From Candidatus Saccharimonadota bacterium (GTDB taxonomy: Bacteria > Patescibacteriota > Saccharimonadia > CAILAD01 > BJGX01), in NCBI GenBank assembly GCA_009691435.1, contig SICO01000003.1, positions 1-37,302 on the forward strand: a stretch of 37,302 bases of DNA, in the 5' to 3' direction. Both the position numbers and the translations under genes were made by a program. The notes beneath the pieces are model-generated. The model saw only the letters and a list, made by a program, of their open reading frames with translations. It made no database searches and was not told the origin of the DNA. Positions within the stretch are counted from its first letter, which is position 1. Every line of letters begins with the position of its first letter. This document shows positions 294 through 9,092 of this stretch, piece after piece.

Positions 294-614
294 TTACATC
301 TTGATTTCGATATTGACACCATTTGGCAAACTAAGATTAGTTAGGCTATCAATGGTTTTAGGGGTATGGTCATAAATTTCAATAAGGCGCTTGTGCGTAC
401 GCATTTCAAACTGCTCACGGGCATCCTTGTAGACGTGGGGGCTAGTTAGTACCGTGTATTTATCCTTTTTGGTGGGTAGTGGGATGGGCCCAGCGACATG
501 AGCACCAGTACGAATAGCCGTATCAATAATCTGCTTAGCTGATTGATCAATAATTTTATTGTCATAAGCCTTTAGCTTGATGCGAATTCGTTGCTTTTCT
601 TGTTTTTCTGGCAT
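294..614 (-). CDS. rpsJ: 30S ribosomal protein S10
   Basis: [38 protein letters not shown] motifs. Confidence 0.98.
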
Positions 615-649
615 TTTAGATAAGGTGCTTTCTTTTACTCTTTTATAAC

Positions 650-1834
650 TTACTTGATAATCTTAGTTACTACTCCTGCTCCAACGGTCTTACCACCCTC
701 TCGAATAGCGAAACGTAGACCCTCGTCCATAGCAATTGGTGCAAGTAACTTAACCTTAACGCTAATATTATCTCCAGGCATAACCATCTCTGTACCTTCT
801 GGTAATTCAACCTCACCCGTGACATCAGTAGTTCGGAAGTAGAACTGTGGTTTATAACCCTTAAAAAATGGAGTGTGACGGCCACCTTCATCTTTTTTCA
901 AAACATAAACTTCACAATCAAACTCGGTATGTGGGGTAATTGAACCTGGCTTAGCAAGAACTTGCCCGCGTTCAATATCGTCTCGTTCAACACCACGCAA
1001 TAAAACACCGACATTATCGCCAGCTTGACCTTCGTCGAGTAGTTTTTTGAACATTTCAACGCCTGTTACAACAGTTTTAGTGGTTTTCTTGATGCCGATG
1101 ATTTCAACTTCTTCATTGATATTTACTTTACCCTGCTCAATACGTCCAGTAGCCACGGTACCGCGCCCTTTAATAGAAAAAACATCTTCAATTGGCATTA
1201 AAAATGGCTTATCTAATTCTCGTACAGGCTCAGGTATAAATTCGTCCATTGCCTTCACAAGCTCCATAATGGCATCTTGACTTGCGGCATCACCCTCTAG
1301 GGCTTTTAATGCCGACCCCTTGATAATTGGGGCATCTTTGTCATATTCATACTTTTCTAATAGCTCACGAATTTCGAGTTCTACCAAGGCGGCTAGTTCT
1401 GGGTCGGCCATATCCATCTTGTTCATAAAGACTAAAATTTTAGGTACCCCAACCTGACGAGCCAAAAGAACATGTTCGCGGGTTTGAGGCATAGGACCGT
1501 CGGCAGCCGAAACTACTAAAATAGCTCCATCAATCTGAGCCGCACCAGTAATCATATTCTTAATGTAATCAGCGTGACCTGGCATATCTACATGGGCATA
1601 ATGCCGTTTTTCACTTTCATACTCTTGGTGTGAAGTAGCAATGGTAATACCACGCTCTTTTTCCTCTGGTGCATTATCAATTTGATCATAAGCAACAGGC
1701 TTGTTAATGTCACTAGGTAGTTTGCTAGCTAGTACTGATGTAATAGCAGCTGTTAGGGTAGTTTTACCATGATCAACGTGCCCCATGGTTCCAACATTTA
1801 CGTGTGGCTTATCTCGCTTAAATTTATCTGACAT
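650..1834 (-). CDS. tuf: Elongation factor Tu
   Basis: [36 protein letters not shown]; AAGGAG SD. Confidence 0.99.
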
Positions 1835-1923
1835 CGATTCTCCTTTATAATATACTTAAAATTAATTGCATTAGATTTGATTTTTTAGACAATAATAAAA
1901 TTGCCATATTATTAGACCTCCTA

Positions 1924-1952
1924 ATTATAAGGAGTATTTACTGATTTGTAAA
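1924..1952 (-). promoter_or_regulatory. Putative internal sigma70 promoter for tuf-rpsJ
   Basis: TTTACA (1952-1947), 17-nt spacer, TATAAT (1929-1924). Confidence 0.65.
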
Positions 1953-1972
1953 GAGGTAAATTATAAATTACG

Positions 1973-4087
1973 TTAGCGTTTTTCGCCAGCTTCGCGGGAG
2001 GCAGTATACTTACCCTTCAGATCGTCAGCAACATGGCTCGGCACCTCGGCATAATGGTCAAATTGCATGGCATAAGAAGCCCTACCTTGAGTCATGCTCC
2101 TAAGGCTAGTGGCATAGCCAAACATTTCGGCAAGCGGAACATAGGCTTTGATAATTTTAGCACCGCTACGGTCCTCCATAGTATCAACTCGGCCTCTTTT
2201 GGCATTAATATCGCCGATTACATCCCCCATGAACTCCTCAGGCGTAGTAACCTCTACTTCCATCGTTGGCTCCATAATAACAGGGGTGGCTTTTTTAACA
2301 CCTTCCTGGAGTGCCATTGAAGCGGCAATTTTAAAAGCTATTTCAGAAGAATCTACATCATGGTAACTCCCATCGTATAGCTTGCAATGCAAGTCTACTA
2401 CTGGATAGCCAGCAATCACACCATTACGCATGGCTTCCTTAACACCAGCCTCAACAGGTGCAATATATTCTCTTGGTATTGCACCACCGACAATAGCGTT
2501 CTCAAATTCAAATGTGATAGTTTTATCACTATCTTCAGTATGAATAAGCGGGCTAAGTTCTAGATAGACATGCCCATATTGTCCACGACCGCCTGATTGG
2601 CGAACAAATTTATGCTCAATCTGAGTGGTACCCTTAATTGTTTCACGAAAGGCTACCTGTGGTCGGCCTACATTTGCTTCTACCTTAAATTCTCGCTTCA
2701 TTCGGTCTACTAATACTTCCAGATGAAGCTCCCCCATACCAGCAATAATCGTCTGCCCTGACTCTTCGTCGGTACTAACGCGGAAAGTTGGGTCTTCTTC
2801 GGCCAGCCTGCCCAGTGCAATACCCATTTTTTCTTGGTCGGCCTTGGTCTTTGGTTCAATTGCAATATTAATAACAGGCTCTGGGAACTCGATAGATTCT
2901 AAAAGTACTTGGTTAGATTCATCGCAAAGAGTATTGCCAGTAACGGTATTCTTAAGCCCTACAGCAGCGGCAATATCCCCGGCATTAACTTCAGTTACTT
3001 CTACGCGGTTATTGGCATGCATGCGCACAATTCGGCCAATTCGTTCCTTCTCGCCGGTGCTAACATTATAAACATAACTACCCGATTTAAGCGTGCCGGC
3101 ATAAACTCTAAAAAAACATAGTTTACCCACAAACGGATCGGTTGCAATCTTAAAGGCTAAGCCCGCAAAGGGAGCCTCATCACTAATCTCAAGCAATTTA
3201 TCTTCGCCGGTTTTATTATCTGTTGCCAAGGGTGGGGTAACATCTAGGGGGCTTGGTAGATAATCAACAATTAAATCTAAAAGTTTCTCTACAATGACGC
3301 CGCGCCCATCACCACCAGCGACTAAGAAAAAATCACCTCTTAGGACAGATCTACGGATAGCTGATTTAATTTCAGCCTCGGTCAGTTCTACGCCATCAAG
3401 ATATCTTTCCATAATAGCATCATCAGCCTCAATAGCAGCCTCAATAAGATGAGTCCTGTACTTCTCGGCTTTTTCAAGCATATCCTCTGGTATTTTAATT
3501 TCTTTTAGCTCTTTATCGGTGTAATCATTATATTGGTAGGCCTTCATCTCAATAACATCAACGATCCCGTTGATTTGCTGTTCAAAGCCAATTGGCAGAT
3601 GCACTGGATAGGCATGCTTGCTTAATCGTTCGTGGATAGAAGCAAGGCTCTTATAAAAATCGCCGCCTGTTTGATTGATTTTATTGATAAAACAAATTCG
3701 GGGAACTCCATATTTGTCAGCTTGTCGCCAAACAGTCTCAGATTGTGGCTCAACCCCCATCTTGCCATCAAACATTACGCAAGCTCCGTCGAGTACCCTC
3801 AAAGAACGCTCAACCTCAACTGTAAAGTCAATATGCCCTGGGGTGTCGATAATGTTAATAAGCTTACCTTTCCAAAAGCAAGTTGTAGCAGCAGAAGTAA
3901 TAGTTATGCCACGCTCCCGCTCCTGCTCCATCCAGTCCATGGTGGCTTCGCCTTGGTGGACTTCACCTATTTTATGTACCACGCCCGTTCGGTACAGGAT
4001 ACCTTCTGTAACAGTGGTTTTGCCAGCATCAATATGGGCAATGGTCCCCACGTTGCGGATATTCTCTAATGTATATTCACGAGCCAT
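1973..4087 (-). CDS. fusA: Elongation factor G (atypical G4/G5 motifs)
   Basis: [36 protein letters not shown]; str-cluster position. Confidence 0.98.
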
Positions 4088-4156
4088 AAAAGTAAGATTA
4101 ATCCCTTTCGCTATTATAAATAAATAATGCCGAAATTTCGGCTTAAGTCGGATACT

Positions 4157-4185
4157 ATTCTACCTTATTTTGACTGTCTTAACAA
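4157..4185 (-). promoter_or_regulatory. Putative sigma70 promoter for fusA
   Basis: TTGTTA (4185-4180), 17-nt spacer, TAGAAT (4162-4157); leader hairpin GCCGA-AATT-TCGGC at 4129-4142. Confidence 0.55.
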
Positions 4186-4267
4186 GTAGTATAAGGTAAT
4201 TTACAAAACTCATTCCGCCACACGCTTGCTTGCAATAAAATCAGGCTTTATAGTAAATAATAATAGT

Positions 4268-4301
4268 AAAAAAAGTGAGTCAGGAGGGTAACTCATTTTT
4301 T
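4268..4301 (-). terminator. Intrinsic, possibly bidirectional, terminator after rpsG
   Basis: Minus strand TGAGTTA-CCCTCC-TGACTCA followed by C and T7; T-run also present on the plus strand. Confidence 0.65.
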
Positions 4302-4350
4302 AGAATGTCTCTAGAGAAATACTAGATTACTTTTTTTGTGGTCAGCTTTA

Positions 4351-4827
4351 TTAGTACCTTGCAAAATGTGCGAAGGCTTTGTTGGCTTCGGCCATTTGGT
4401 GAGTGTCTTGCTTTTTCCTAATTGCATCACCTTCATTATTATAGGCTGCAACTAATTCGTGAGCGAGTTTTTGATCAAAGCTTTTGCCCTTTTTCTTGCG
4501 CGCCGATTCTAATATCCAAACCATTGCGTAATGCACCCTACGATCACCTTTTACTTCAATTGGGACCTGATAATTAGCTCCGCCAATACGCTTAGATTTT
4601 ACTTGTACCTGTGGGCTAACGTTTTTAATAGCGCCTTCAAAAACTTCCAAAGGTTCTTTTTTAGTTTTCTCAGAGGCTTGCTGCAAGGCACCATAAACTA
4701 AGTTCTCTGCTAAACGTTTTTTACCATCTAGCATGACCTTGTTAATCATTTTAGTCACCAAAACACTATCATATAACCTATCGGCTAAATGAACTCGTTT
4801 CAGGGATTTAGTAACTTTTCTAGGCAT
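4351..4827 (-). CDS. rpsG: 30S ribosomal protein S7
   Basis: MLDGKK, RIGGANYQVP, MAEANKAFAHF. Confidence 0.98.
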   Translation of the reverse strand: MPRKVTKSLKRVHLADRLYDSVLVTKMINKVMLDGKKRLAENLVYGALQQASEKTKKEPLEVFEGAIKNVSPQVQVKSKRIGGANYQVPIEVKGDRRVHYAMVWILESARKKKGKSFDQKLAHELVAAYNNEGDAIRKKQDTHQMAEANKAFAHFARY

Positions 4828-4830
4828 AGC

Positions 4831-5256
4831 TTACTCTTTTTTGCTCCCACTAGATTTTTTAACACCATACTTGCTTCTACCCTGCTTGCGATTGCTAACA
4901 CCGCCAGTATCAAGGTGTCCTCTCACGATGTGATAACGAACACCGCCAAGATCCTTAACGCGACCGCCACGGACCAAAACAACTGAATGTTCCTGCAAAT
5001 TATGGCCTTCGCCGGGGATGTAGGCAGTAACTTCCATACCATTAGTTAGTCTAACGCGGGCCACTTTACGAAGGGCCGAATTAGGCTTACGAGGGGTCTG
5101 GGTATAAACCTTGATGCAAACTCCGCGCTTAAAAGGGGCAACGCGCTGGGTAGATTGGTTTTTAAGAGAATTAAAAGTCCTGCCTAAAGCCGGTGATTTG
5201 GTTTTGGTTGTCTTGCGCGTACGCGGTTTTCTAATAAGTTGATTAATAGTTGGCAT
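4831..5256 (-). CDS. rpsL: 30S ribosomal protein S12 (start reassigned to ATG at 5256, MPTINQL)
   Basis: [37 protein letters not shown]. Confidence 0.98.
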
Positions 5257-5272
5257 AATTTGTAATTTCAAT

Positions 5273-5301
5273 ACTCTAACAGATAAGACTCATCTGGTCA
5301 A
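5273..5301 (-). promoter_or_regulatory. Putative promoter for rpsL-rpsG overlapping the rpoC stop
   Basis: TTGACC, 17-nt spacer ending TGT, TAGAGT. Confidence 0.5.
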
Positions 5302-8300
5302 GCATTCCCTCCACTGTCATCTCTAAAGCCAGTACCGACTGGTATTAATCGGCCAATTATAACATTTTCCTTAAGGCCTCGTAAATTATCAGACTTCCCA
5401 CGAATTGCAGCGCCAATTAATACCCGAGTAGTTTCCTGGAATGATGCAGCCGATAACCAGCTGTCAGCTCCTGTAGAAATTTTCGTAATTGGCATTAAGA
5501 GCAATTCATAAGTAGCTGGTTTTTTACCCTTACTGAGAGCTTTGTCGTTAGCTATGGTCAATGAAGGCTTGGAAACTATGTCACCAGAAATAAACTCTGT
5601 ATCGCCAGGCTCTTCAATCTGGACTCTGCTAAACATCTGCTTAATAATCACTTCGATATGCTTAGCAGCAATAGTCTGGCCTTGGCTTAAATAAATTGCC
5701 TGGACTTCATCGATAACATAACGTTGCACTGCCTCTTCGCTACGAAGTTTTAGCATATCTTGAAGATTAATTGGTCCTTCTGTCAAACGCTGACCTATCT
5801 CTACTCTGTCGCCAGATTTAACCTCAACTGTAACATATTCACCAATAGTGTATTCACGTAACCCGGCACCTAAGTGAGTTAATGATATTTTATCTTTTGT
5901 AACCTTAACTTCACCTGACCCACCGGCCTTGATAGTCCGCTTGCCATCCTTGCTCTGGGCTAATATTTGGCTACGTTCTACTGTTGCCCCTGATTTTACT
6001 TTAGCCTGCATGGTCCCTAATTTATAATCTGTGACTTTTTGATTATCAGGAATAATTATAAGGTTTTGCTTGTTCCCAGCCTTGCGAATTTGAATTGTTC
6101 CTTCCATATCCGCTAGTATGGCATGCCCCTTAGGATTACGAACTTCAAATATTTCTTCAACTCTTGGAAGCCCCTGGGTGATATCTTCAGTAGCAACACC
6201 ACCAGCATGCATGGTACGCATGGTCAATTGAGTCCCTGGTTCGCCAATACTCTGAGCGGCGATTATACCAACCGCCTCACCCTGCCTAACGGGCTTGCCA
6301 GTACCTAGATCTAAGCCATAGCATCTCTCGCAGATTCCCCATAAGCTTTTACACTTCAAAATTGAACGAATCCTAACCTCTTCAATGTCTGTTTCGTCGA
6401 TTGCTTTTGCTTCATCATCTAAGATTAATCCGTTTTTCTTAATAATAACTTGCTTAGTTTTAGGATTAATAATTTTTTCATTAGCGACTCTACCTACTAA
6501 CCAAGCGCCTATTCCGTCTTCACCAGCTGCTTGAGCTTCAGCTCTACTGATAATATAGCCTTCCTTGTCGCCACAATTTTCTTCTGAGATTACAATGTCC
6601 TGGCTAACATCAACCAACCTACGAGTTAAGTAGCCTGACTCGGCAGTTCTTAGGGCGGTATCTGTTAAACCTTTACGGGCACCATGAGTACTAATAAAGT
6701 ATTCAAGAATCGAGAGCCCATCTTTATAATTAGATCGAATTGGTAACTCAATAGTTCTGCCAGATGGATTAAGCATCAACCCAAGCATTCCAGCCATCTG
6801 GTTAACCTGTGCCATAGTAGCACGGGCTCCAGAGTCTATATCTAATGTTAATGTCGATTCACTTTTACCGAGTGTCTCAACTAGTGATTTTTCAACTGCC
6901 TCACCGACATCCTTCCAGGCGGTAATAGTCTTATGGTAACGCTCATCGTCCGTAATCAAGCCCTGGTCATACTGGCTGGCGAAACTAACAACTTTCTCTT
7001 CCCCCTGCGCAATAATATTAGCGCGGTCCGGAGGGACAACTAGGTCATCCATCCCAATTGAAATACCCGACAATGTTGCATACTCAAAACCTAAATCTTT
7101 CACTGCGTCTGAAAGTTTTGCTGTTTCGTCTGGCCCAAAATTAACGAATACTTCAGCCATGACTTTCTTTAGCTTAGATTTAGTCATCATATCATTCTGG
7201 AATGCCATTCCTGTCGGCAAGACCTCATTGAATAATAGCCTTCCGGTAGATGTCTCAACTAACTGATTGTTAACGCGAACGCTAATTTTGGCTCGTAAAT
7301 CAACGGCGCCGCCTTGATGCGCCATAATGGCGATGTCAGAATTTTCAAATATTTTACCTTCACCTTTAGAGCCAGGCTTGATAGATGTCATAAAATAGCA
7401 ACCAAGTACAATGTCTTTGCTAGGATTAACGACTGGCTCGCCAGATGATGGCTTCAGTAGGTTATGCCTGGAAAGCATGATATCCTTCGCTTCTGCCTGT
7501 GCGGCCTTACCAAGCGGAACATGAACGGCCATTTGGTCACCATCGAAATCAGCATTAAAAGCTGCACAAACCATTGGGTGCAACTGGATGGCTTTACCTT
7601 CAATTAAGATTGGCTTAAAGGCTTGTATGCCTAGGCGATGCAGGGTAGGCGCTCTATTTAAAAGCACGTACTTATCGGCGATTACTTCATCTAGTGTATC
7701 CCAGACTTCCGACTTAGATCTCTCGATCATGCGCGATGCACTCTTAACATTATGGGCATAACCTGCGTCAATTAGACGGCCAATTACAAAAGGTTTGAAT
7801 AGTTCTAAGGCCATCATCTTTGGAATACCACACTGGTCTAGCTTAAGATGGGGACCAATTACTATTACTGAACGACCTGAATAATCAACACGCTTACCGA
7901 GTAAGTTTTGACGGAATCGGCCTTGCTTACCTTTCAGTAAATCTGTCAGACTCTTAAGTTTCTTGCGGCTCCCAGTAGCTGAAACAGCTCTATCTCGCCG
8001 AGCATTATTATCAATTAGGGCATCAACTGCCTCCTGCAACATACGCTTTTCATTGCGGCATATTACTTCTGGCGCTTGCAAACGATAAAGCTTTTTGAGC
8101 CTATTATTACGATTAATAACCCGACGATACAAGTCATTTAAATCAGAGGCAGCAAACCGACCTCCGTCTAATTGCACCATTGGCCGGAGATCTGGTGGGA
8201 TTACTGGTAGTTCTGTAGTAATCAACCACTCTGGTCGTAGCTCTGCCTGTAGCATGCCCTCTACGAGCTTTAGCCTTTTTAGGGCTTTCTTCTTTTTCTG

Positions 8301-9092
8301 ACCAATACTTGATATTGATTCTTCCCTTAATTTTTTGATAAGTTTCTTAAGGTCTATCTCGGAGAGTAGTTGCAAGATAGCTTCAGCCCCAATAGTAGCC
8401 TTAAAGATATGCCCAAACTTTTGGTTAAGTTCGCGGTAACGACTCTCTGGTAATAGCTCATATTTAGCAAAATTTGTAAGGTCTGATTTAGCAGCTGTAT
8501 AGGTGTTATCTAGCTCGGCCAGCACGCTAATTGCCTCATCACTCAAAACTTCTTTTTCTGGTTTTTTAATTTTATACTTAGCTAAAATATCCTTACGGCG
8601 AGTTTTAAAATCTACTTCAAGTTCTTTAAGAGCTTCAACTTTAGCTTTTTCATCGACTTCTGTAACAATAAAATTAGCAAAATAAACTACTCTTTCTAGG
8701 TCGCGTACCCCGAGATTAAGTAATAAACTAATTGGGCTAGGTGTACCTCTTAAAAACCAAATATGGGTAACTGGCACGGCTAGCGTAATATGGCCCATTC
8801 GCTCGCGCCTAATAATACTGCGTGTAATTAATACACCGCATTTATCACAGCTAATTCCCTTATAACGAATTCCCTTATACTTTCCGCAATAGCATTGCCA
8901 ATCTTTAGATGGACCAAAGATTTTTTCACAAAATAGACCATCTTTTTCAGGCTTTTGAGTTCGATAGTTAATAGTTTCTGGCTTAGTTATCTCGCCATGC
9001 GACCAACCTAAGATTGTTTCTGATGAAGCCACCGAAAGGCGAATAGCATCAAAGTCAAGGATCATCGTTTGTTCATTTAAGTTTTTATTCAT
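5298..9092 (-). CDS. rpoC: RNA polymerase beta' subunit
   Basis: NADFDGD catalytic motif, CYCGKYK...CDKC zinc site, GKRVDYSGRSVI, GEPGTQLTMRT. Confidence 0.99.
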   Translation of the reverse strand: MNKNLNEQTMILDFDAIRLSVASSETILGWSHGEITKPETINYRTQKPEKDGLFCEKIFGPSKDWQCYCGKYKGIRYKGISCDKCGVLITRSIIRRERMGHITLAVPVTHIWFLRGTPSPISLLLNLGVRDLERVVYFANFIVTEVDEKAKVEALKELEVDFKTRRKDILAKYKIKKPEKEVLSDEAISVLAELDNTYTAAKSDLTNFAKYELLPESRYRELNQKFGHIFKATIGAEAILQLLSEIDLKKLIKKLREESISSIGQKKKKALKRLKLVEGMLQAELRPEWLITTELPVIPPDLRPMVQLDGGRFAASDLNDLYRRVINRNNRLKKLYRLQAPEVICRNEKRMLQEAVDALIDNNARRDRAVSATGSRKKLKSLTDLLKGKQGRFRQNLLGKRVDYSGRSVIVIGPHLKLDQCGIPKMMALELFKPFVIGRLIDAGYAHNVKSASRMIERSKSEVWDTLDEVIADKYVLLNRAPTLHRLGIQAFKPILIEGKAIQLHPMVCAAFNADFDGDQMAVHVPLGKAAQAEAKDIMLSRHNLLKPSSGEPVVNPSKDIVLGCYFMTSIKPGSKGEGKIFENSDIAIMAHQGGAVDLRAKISVRVNNQLVETSTGRLLFNEVLPTGMAFQNDMMTKSKLKKVMAEVFVNFGPDETAKLSDAVKDLGFEYATLSGISIGMDDLVVPPDRANIIAQGEEKVVSFASQYDQGLITDDERYHKTITAWKDVGEAVEKSLVETLGKSESTLTLDIDSGARATMAQVNQMAGMLGLMLNPSGRTIELPIRSNYKDGLSILEYFISTHGARKGLTDTALRTAESGYLTRRLVDVSQDIVISEENCGDKEGYIISRAEAQAAGEDGIGAWLVGRVANEKIINPKTKQVIIKKNGLILDDEAKAIDETDIEEVRIRSILKCKSLWGICERCYGLDLGTGKPVRQGEAVGIIAAQSIGEPGTQLTMRTMHAGGVATEDITQGLPRVEEIFEVRNPKGHAILADMEGTIQIRKAGNKQNLIIIPDNQKVTDYKLGTMQAKVKSGATVERSQILAQSKDGKRTIKAGGSGEVKVTKDKISLTHLGAGLREYTIGEYVTVEVKSGDRVEIGQRLTEGPINLQDMLKLRSEEAVQRYVIDEVQAIYLSQGQTIAAKHIEVIIKQMFSRVQIEEPGDTEFISGDIVSKPSLTIANDKALSKGKKPATYELLLMPITKISTGADSWLSAASFQETTRVLIGAAIRGKSDNLRGLKENVIIGRLIPVGTGFRDDSGGNA

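Follow-up and report, generated by a model that had tools for sequence, protein, structure and literature searches.

The window analysed here is a stretch of 37,302 nucleotides (positions 1 to 37,302 of contig SICO01000003.1, assembly GCA_009691435.1) from a Candidatus Saccharimonadota bacterium, and it carries fusA, the gene for elongation factor G (EF-G), on its minus strand. In the predicted protein the three phosphate-binding and switch motifs are canonical, whereas both motifs that normally read the guanine base, G4 and G5, have been replaced. The gene and its motifs are located as follows.

1973..4087, minus strand: fusA, elongation factor G, 704 amino acids; open reading frame (ORF) named by TIGR00484 and the sole full EF-G found in the genome
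4016..4039, minus strand: G1/P-loop AHIDAGKT, residues 17-24; canonical, identical to Staphylococcus aureus EF-G
3899..3913, minus strand: G2/switch I RGITI, residues 59-63; canonical, identical to S. aureus EF-G
3833..3847, minus strand: G3/switch II DTPGH with the catalytic His, residues 81-85; canonical, identical to S. aureus EF-G
3758..3760, minus strand: codon of Met110; Met in 69/69 variant EF-Gs, and Ala, Gln or Asn in 21/21 canonical Patescibacteria EF-Gs
3674..3685, minus strand: variant G4 NKIN, residues 135-138; Asn138 in place of the guanine-reading Asp
3299..3316, minus strand: variant G5 GGDGRG, residues 258-263; Asp260 at the site of the G5 Ser/Thr and Arg262 at that of the next Lys, in a loop one residue shorter
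3188..3700, minus strand: approximate G4-G'-G5 cassette, residues ~130-300; bounds inferred from relatives and not from this genome, with divergence that may reach about residue 400

The product scores 1077.7 bits against the EF-G model TIGR00484 (cut-off 659.4), matching profile positions 1-686 of 691, and all five EF-G domains are intact. Its best solved relative is S. aureus EF-G (3zz0/2xex, E ~4e-281, aligned over residues 1-692 by HMMER), which has NKMD at G4 and CGTAFKNKGV, one residue longer than the variant, at G5. In both the HMMER and the MAFFT alignment Asp260 falls in the column of the G5 Ser/Thr, and Arg262 in that of the Lys next after SAL; the G5 Ala has become Gly and one residue has been deleted. 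The G4 Lys136 is kept in all the sequences that we read. Two features of the classical guanine-specific TRAFAC GTPases, the Asp of (N/T)KxD at G4 and the (T/G)(C/S)A of G5, are thus absent from this EF-G. The EF-Tu encoded next door has FMNKMDM at G4 and KGSALKA at G5. An earlier note, made from the letters of this stretch alone, had described the same replacements beside intact G1, G2 and G3 motifs and an EF-Tu that keeps NKMD and GSAL. Its account agrees with the motif positions, the S. aureus alignment and the EF-Tu translation; both strings that it quoted are present, and the interval 3299-3685 spans exactly G5 to G4.

The source genome (560 kb in 38 contigs, a metagenome-type assembly, 93.85% complete) gave three matches to the EF-G model, of which fusA alone exceeded the cut-off. 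The others were the G domains of EF-Tu and of a 600-residue protein that is IF2 (TIGR00487, 631.9 bits). A second, canonical fusA was not found by this search of the 93.85% complete genome, and the variant scores below the cut-off of the EF-G2 paralogue model (NF009377, 512 bits against 890). The same EF-G query turned up no LepA, BipA or RF3, whose own families were not searched.

Among the GTPases of the genome named by NCBIfam, altered base motifs occur in EF-G only, the others keeping an acidic last G4 residue and an SA-type G5: IF2 (NKMD, SAK), domain 1 (NKLD, SA) and domain 2 (TKWD, SA) of Der, MnmE (TKSD, SAL) and Obg (SKIE, SA). The nucleoside diphosphate kinase Ndk (PF00334) is present on contig C9. 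Since EF-Tu, IF2, Der, MnmE and Obg retain an acidic G4 residue with an SA-type G5 and Ndk is present, GTP must be needed and made in the cell in any case. A family search of the assembly, which is 93.85% complete and not closed, did not find the RelA_SpoT synthetase domain (PF04607). As a separate observation, the 423-residue Obg (contig C35, outside the window; NF008955, 461.9 bits) departs from the usual Obg G4 motif NKxD, with Glu for Asp and Ser for Asn, and its G5 is still SA.

Distribution and coupling of the G4 and G5 changes

NKIN and GGDGRG occur together in all 120 of the closest homologues in a collection of 5.8 billion proteins (74-92% identity), several of them named Saccharibacteria. 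To place these sequences in the phylum we used an even sample of 401 Patescibacteria genomes, in which 391 had an EF-G G-domain match at E ≤ 1e-40 and 387 of the 391 had a single match. The remaining four (G090, G158, G204 and G225) have two matches each with unusually weak best scores, e.g. 4.6e-59, and may hold a split or frameshifted fusA, or two copies. We read 90 EF-G genes, our own included (30 loci and 60 fetched, biased to those most similar to the query); 69 were variant, with NK(I/L)N and G(G/T/A)D-x-R, 21 were canonical, with NK(L/M)D and G(S/T/A)AL, and none was intermediate.

A specific DNA pattern for NK(I/L/M)N-x-x-GG(D/N)F, which gave one match in all as a reversed control, has a single match in each of at least 130 of the 401 genomes. 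The number is a minimum, as all five f27 genomes that the pattern missed are variant, with NKINLIGGSF (GGSF for GG(D/N)F) and GGDSRT. The count of 130, like the tallies for the G domain, for guanylate kinase and for a GGDGRG pattern, includes one genome flagged as unpublished (G154). That pattern, for GGDGRG only, matched 163 of the 401 genomes and was dropped as a count, its matches including many chance ones that were also numerous in the reversed control. In a representative library the EF-Gs collapse to few clusters at 50% identity, and the 150 matches were mostly fragments with canonical NKxD, used as rooting outgroups only.

A scan of contigs with one genome per species gave at least 119 loci, and of those listed 108 were EF-G and 11 were chance matches outside EF-G. 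The titles among the matches listed were Saccharibacteria/Saccharimonadia (80), 'Patescibacteria group' (7), Dojkabacteria, Nomurabacteria and Nanosyncoccus (2 each), and WWE3, Berkelbacteria, Doudnabacteria, Minimicrobia (a complete genome, L123) and Microsaccharimonas (1 each). Three variant fusA genes (L109, L159 and L163) lie on 3-20 kb contigs in bins titled Bordetella, Methylococcaceae and Gammaproteobacteria; by sequence they resemble the Saccharimonadia type, and the contigs are probably mis-binned.

The two motifs change together without exception in any sequence read. Both are altered in 74/74 variant genes of the phylum sample, as they are in the 120 database homologues, and Asp-x-Arg stands at G5 in 70/70 of the listed scan loci that reach G5; conversely, 21/21 sequences with a canonical G4 have G(S/T/A)AL at G5. 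Across 182 variant fusA genes the G4 Asn is encoded by AAC in 109 and AAT in 73. At G5, in the 142 of these that reach it, the Asp is GAT in 90 and GAC in 52, and the Arg uses six codons. The residues are therefore held by selection, since they stay constant while their synonymous codons turn over, even though Asn is a single transition away from Asp.

Asn138, Asp260 and Arg262 show no or almost no variation among the 69 variants, whereas the 21 canonical sequences have Asp, Ser/Thr/Ala and Lys/Ala/Leu/Gly at these sites. The two types differ, with at most slight overlap, at Met110, Ile137, Asn138, Gln139, Phe168, Gln170, Ile172, Thr190, Gly258, Asp260, Gly261, Arg262, Gly263 and Ile265. Sub-forms of the variant were also seen: NKINLVGG with GGDGRK (L034-L039 and L045, in f75, f101 and f57), GGD(F/Y)RG with a two-residue insertion before G5 (L040, L041, L049, L052 and L053, in f12), and the NKINLIGGSF and GGDSRT form of f27 (L217-L221). 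The Asn, Asp and Arg are fixed across all of them.

No second canonical EF-G was found in five other genomes searched by family (G037, G150, G202, G181 and G243, with one EF-G each), and a variant and a canonical EF-G were never seen together in the genomes checked. The variant EF-G is a distinct, old class in a large part of the Patescibacteria, present in about a third of the sampled bacteria of the Candidate Phyla Radiation (CPR). The trait is thus wider than the lineage-wide occurrence that had been guessed from the single sequence, and the two lines of enquiry proposed with that guess, co-variation of G4 and G5 and a second canonical fusA, gave complete coupling in the sequences read and no further copy in the genomes checked.

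Two histories within fusA

Two changes account for the variant state in a tree of 88 full-length EF-Gs. With 44 full-length sequences of the representative library as the root, all variants fall into a single clade (support 98) that branches from within the canonical Patescibacteria EF-Gs and also takes in one canonical pair, from family f54. The picture depends strongly on the part of the protein used, as the number of state changes for each set of residues indicates.

Residues 1-285: 1 change; the two types are the two sides of one branch, support 99
Residues 1-109: 4 changes
Residues 141-256 (G' only, with motif and top discriminating columns removed): 2 changes
Residues 270-400: 9 changes
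Residues 300-690: 8 changes; sequences group by taxonomic family
Residues 401-690: 8 changes

Four families (f20, f54, f57 and f22) hold both types of EF-G. The plainest example is within genus g57, in which G202 is canonical and G037 is variant, each with a single EF-G in the same position adjoining tuf. The two proteins are 83-95% identical over the first ~130 residues, 31-50% over ~130-300, 70-85% up to ~400 and 95-100% beyond. Their bL12 proteins are 96.5% identical overall, and identical (74/74) in the C-terminal domain.

Approximately unbiased (AU) tests were made with groups named after the first trees had been seen. For residues 401-690, forcing the variants together costs 313 log-likelihood units (p ~1e-13), and five f20 sequences form a clade with support of 99.9. 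For residues 130-300, a partition that includes the trait's own columns, the tests reject a forced f20 group (p 3e-4), and the variants come out as a clade with support of 100. A single history for the whole of fusA is rejected by these tests. The simplest reading is that a G4-G'-G5 cassette of ~170 residues appears to have been swapped between lineages by homologous recombination inside fusA. The replaced motifs, which the earlier note had treated by themselves, hence appear to belong to a larger cassette that moves between lineages by recombination. As fusA is a core 'marker' gene, its two histories in the Patescibacteria affect phylogenies that are based on it.

Base selection by the variant EF-G

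The intact G1-G3 motifs and five domains, the sole copy, the strict conservation and the exchange with the canonical cassette on a near-identical ribosomal background together suggest that the variant EF-G is the cell's single essential, working ribosomal translocase. It would act as a ribosome-dependent nucleoside triphosphatase that drives translocation and, with ribosome recycling factor (RRF), the recycling of ribosomes. On balance we favour a model, built from the aligned sequences, in which this EF-G is still driven by GTP and the base-reading carboxylate has moved from G4 to G5. In the GTP-driven model the G4 Asp that hydrogen-bonds guanine N1/N2 would have given way to the invariant Asn, and the G5 Ser to the invariant Asp with an invariant Arg two residues later. 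Asn138, Asp260 and Arg262 would then jointly still select guanine, possibly with changed affinity or exchange kinetics. The variant module would be interchangeable with the canonical one, and would have passed between lineages via homologous recombination inside fusA.

In Ras-like and EF-Tu structures the G5 Ser lies beside the G4 Asp on the guanine N1/N2 side, and the backbone NH of the next residue reads O6. On this geometry the carboxylate has probably moved by one loop and not far in space, and a buried carboxylate at the G5 Ser position would be expected to fit guanine better than adenine. A survey of 298 guanine-nucleotide complexes (PMC11594714) describes the Ala146 backbone NH as contacting O6 and the NKxD Asp as bidentate to N1/N2, and reports that 20.5% of the complexes lack NKxD yet have N1/N2 read by an Asp or Glu from elsewhere. 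The Arg262 site is variable in canonical EF-Gs and fixed in the variant, and the Arg has therefore presumably gained a role, which could be to stack on the base as a substitute for the deleted Leu or to form a pair with Asp260. Together the alignment of Asp260 and Arg262, the 20.5% precedent and the fixed Arg262 favour a rewired pocket that would still read guanine. Of the two alternatives raised in the earlier note, compensation by the G5 Asp and a switched or relaxed nucleotide specificity, we judge the former the likelier, by inference.

Several observations weigh against a retained guanine specificity. According to PMC7952092, Ras and related GTPases lose their guanine specificity through Asp-to-Asn by itself, and in SpoIVA and Era two changes, a missing G4 Asp and an acidic residue within the G5 loop, suffice to turn a preference for GTP into one for ATP. 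The arrangement of Asn, Asp and Arg in the pocket is, moreover, a prediction. An AlphaFold2 model of residues 1-300 built from 25 aligned sequences had a mean predicted local distance difference test score (pLDDT) of 62.7 and was unusable for the pocket, with pLDDT <50 at residues 17-50, 59-65, 83-98, 108-115, 137-146 and 261-264, which is to say at every nucleotide loop. It shows only that strand 129-135 leads into G4 and strand 254-258 into G5, an arrangement shared with canonical G domains.

The distribution of guanylate kinase (PF00625; gene gmk) belongs with these observations. A family search did not find it in our own genome, in an assembly that is 93.85% complete and not closed, and in the phylum sample it was found in 40/135 variant genomes as against 123/256 of the others. 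Within family f20, gmk is present in 4/4 canonical genomes (G009, G168, G202 and G217) and in 0/6 variant ones (G037, G062, G130, G150, G290 and G304). The association holds even within genus g57, and a homologue of the gmk of G202 was not found in G037, G150 or G062. The f20 pattern may point to a link with guanine-nucleotide supply. In the other mixed families gmk does not follow the cassette, with both types lacking it in f54 and f57 and both having it in f22. There are only four independent contrasts, with a sign test p of ~0.5. The link to nucleotide scavenging drawn in the earlier note is thus left with a weak, non-significant hint, which comes from the distribution of gmk.

The rival for which there is most to say is that the cassette has switched or relaxed base specificity, such that ATP, or ATP and GTP alike, drives translocation; we regard this as a serious if less likely reading. 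Adenine N1 would receive a hydrogen bond from Asn138, and its N6 amino group would give one to Asp260 in a reshaped glycine-rich G5 loop. The main guanine determinant, the G4 Asp, has been lost and an acidic residue gained in G5, and a similar double change underlies the ATP preference of SpoIVA and, when transplanted into Era, makes Era prefer ATP (PMC7952092); in addition the G5 Ala, whose backbone NH reads O6 (PMC11594714), is Gly here and one residue is deleted. Against this, the variant keeps the Lys and Asn of NKxD, unlike the NSxR of SpoIVA, and carries its new Asp on the first G5 position (Ser) and not on the third as in the SxE of SpoIVA. That EF-G is the only altered GTPase of the genome also fits the use of ATP, as do the failure to find gmk in the genome, its lower frequency in variants and its perfect co-variation with the cassette in f20. 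EF-G binds GTP weakly relative to EF-Tu, which we likewise count in favour. An Asp at the first G5 position, however, lies near the N1/N2 edge, where adenine offers a carboxylate nothing. EF-Tu and IF2 would still need GTP, with Ndk present, and no saving is obvious; the gmk link is itself weak, with 40 variant genomes having the gene and 133 non-variant genomes without it across the phylum sample.

The other rivals fare less well. That the point of the cassette is its G' subdomain, for example an adaptation to a different L7/L12 stalk with the G4 and G5 changes hitch-hiking, seems unlikely, even though residues 141-256, stripped of the motif columns, are nearly as good as the motifs at separating the types (2 changes) and G' contacts L7/L12 (PMC3150367). 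The acidic G' helices look retained in our reading of the S. aureus alignment, and Asn138, Asp260 and Arg262 are the strictest invariant discriminating positions, which is unlike hitch-hikers. For genus g57 co-adaptation to L7/L12 was rejected, given the 74/74 identity of the bL12 C-terminal domains between the variant G037 and the canonical G202. A pocket that prefers xanthine or hypoxanthine nucleotides (XTP or ITP) is very improbable. EF-Tu D138N is an engineered Asp-to-Asn mutant with a preference for xanthine nucleotides; to our knowledge, though, cells hold no substantial pool of XTP or ITP, which are actively removed, and an essential translocase present as a single copy could not rely on such nucleotides. 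The same substitution switches Ras to xanthine nucleotides (PMC7952092), yet a G5 carboxylate beside the Asn would be expected to repel the xanthine O2 carbonyl. Least credible of all is that the changes are neutral or degenerative, in a decaying or non-catalytic relative of EF-G, or an artefact of assembly or binning. Nothing positive speaks for this beyond a metagenome-type assembly in 38 contigs, and it is already contradicted by the conservation, with residues invariant despite synonymous codon turnover. The protein is moreover the only EF-G of its genome, with G1-G3 and five domains intact, and the same state recurs in hundreds of independent assemblies including the complete genome record L123.

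Comparison with known systems brings out what is new. The variant resembles canonical EF-G (S. aureus 2XEX/3ZZ0, Thermus thermophilus 1DAR/2BM0) in its full-length homology, five domains, G1-G3 with the catalytic His, str position and sole copy, and differs in having NKIN for NKxD, GGDGRG for G(S/T)A(L/F)KN, and the class-specific Met110 and several G' positions. YchF/Ola1 proteins are Obg-family ATPases with NxxE in place of NKxD, and are thus also natural, ribosome-acting proteins of the TRAFAC GTPase fold with an altered G4; they differ in the G4 solution, in the family and in not being translocases. The substitution at the guanine-reading Asp is the one made in EF-Tu D138N and Ras D119N. 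Such mutants are laboratory constructs, xanthine-specific and with G5 unchanged (PMC7952092), whereas the EF-G change occurs in nature, has become fixed in a large clade and never comes without Asp-x-Arg at G5. SpoIVA, an ATPase derived from Era-like TRAFAC GTPases, shares the loss of the G4 Asp and the acidic G5-loop residue, which there control the preference for ATP or GTP (same source), but has lost the G4 Lys too (NSxR), has its acid at the third G5 position (SxE), and is cytoskeletal and not a translation factor. The EF-G2 of Thermus and Mycobacterium and the split-function EF-Gs of Borrelia are likewise diverged bacterial EF-Gs; they occur, however, beside a canonical EF-G and retain NKxD and SA, a 2011 survey giving G4 NKxD and G5 gSAx as conserved even in the divergent EFG II subfamily (PMC3150367), while the variant is the only EF-G of its genome.

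A full-text literature search, with subscription journals outside its scope, found no description of an EF-G without the G4 Asp in the Patescibacteria or elsewhere; one candidate, PMC13343842, had nothing that bears on it. What is new is that the universal translocase has, in nature and across a clade, an alternative module for the nucleotide base, one that appears to recombine. EF-G is universal and the NKxD Asp is treated as a fixed signature of translational GTPases, and here the sole EF-G does without it. If GTP is kept, this would be a natural case of a specificity determinant moved between loops, useful for understanding and engineering nucleotide selectivity. Rather more tentatively, about a third of the CPR, including cultivated human-associated Saccharibacteria, could translocate with ATP, or with ATP and GTP indifferently, via a cassette with an Asn/Asp/Arg pocket. 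Such an EF-G would be the first translocase known to lack GTP specificity, and its distribution may follow that of guanylate kinase loss; even tolerance of ATP would make a natural exception to GTP-specific elongation factors in organisms with minimal nucleotide metabolism. The question of GTP or ATP is within reach of ordinary biochemistry, because the cassette occurs in Saccharibacteria-named records with cultured relatives.

The str operon and minor features of the locus

The variant fusA has the str-operon setting rpsL-rpsG-fusA-tuf around it. In the ORF list the minus strand of 294-9092 reads rpoC, rpsL, rpsG, fusA, tuf, rpsJ, and NCBIfam names S12, S7, EF-Tu and S10 among the products.

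4831..5271, minus strand: rpsL, ribosomal protein S12, str operon (TIGR00981, 210 bits)
4351..4827, minus strand: rpsG, ribosomal protein S7, upstream of fusA in the str operon (TIGR01029, 191 bits)
650..1834, minus strand: tuf, EF-Tu (TIGR00485, 706.8 bits), with canonical NKMD and GSAL
294..614, minus strand: rpsJ, ribosomal protein S10, downstream of tuf (NF001861, 158 bits)

The 263-base gap between rpsG and fusA holds a short GC hairpin with a T-rich tail just upstream of the fusA start (4129-4142, minus strand), which resembles a terminator in pattern only. A promoter-like site (1924-1952, minus strand) lies in the 138 bases that separate the stop of fusA from the start of tuf and agrees with 11 of 12 consensus positions, with TTTACA, a 17-nucleotide spacer and TATAAT; as a consensus match only, it could be an internal promoter for tuf. 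Three antisense ORFs of 95-150 amino acids lie on the plus strand inside fusA (2033-2320, 3632-4069 and 3675-4127), and are taken as mechanical ORFs of a highly conserved gene and not as genes.

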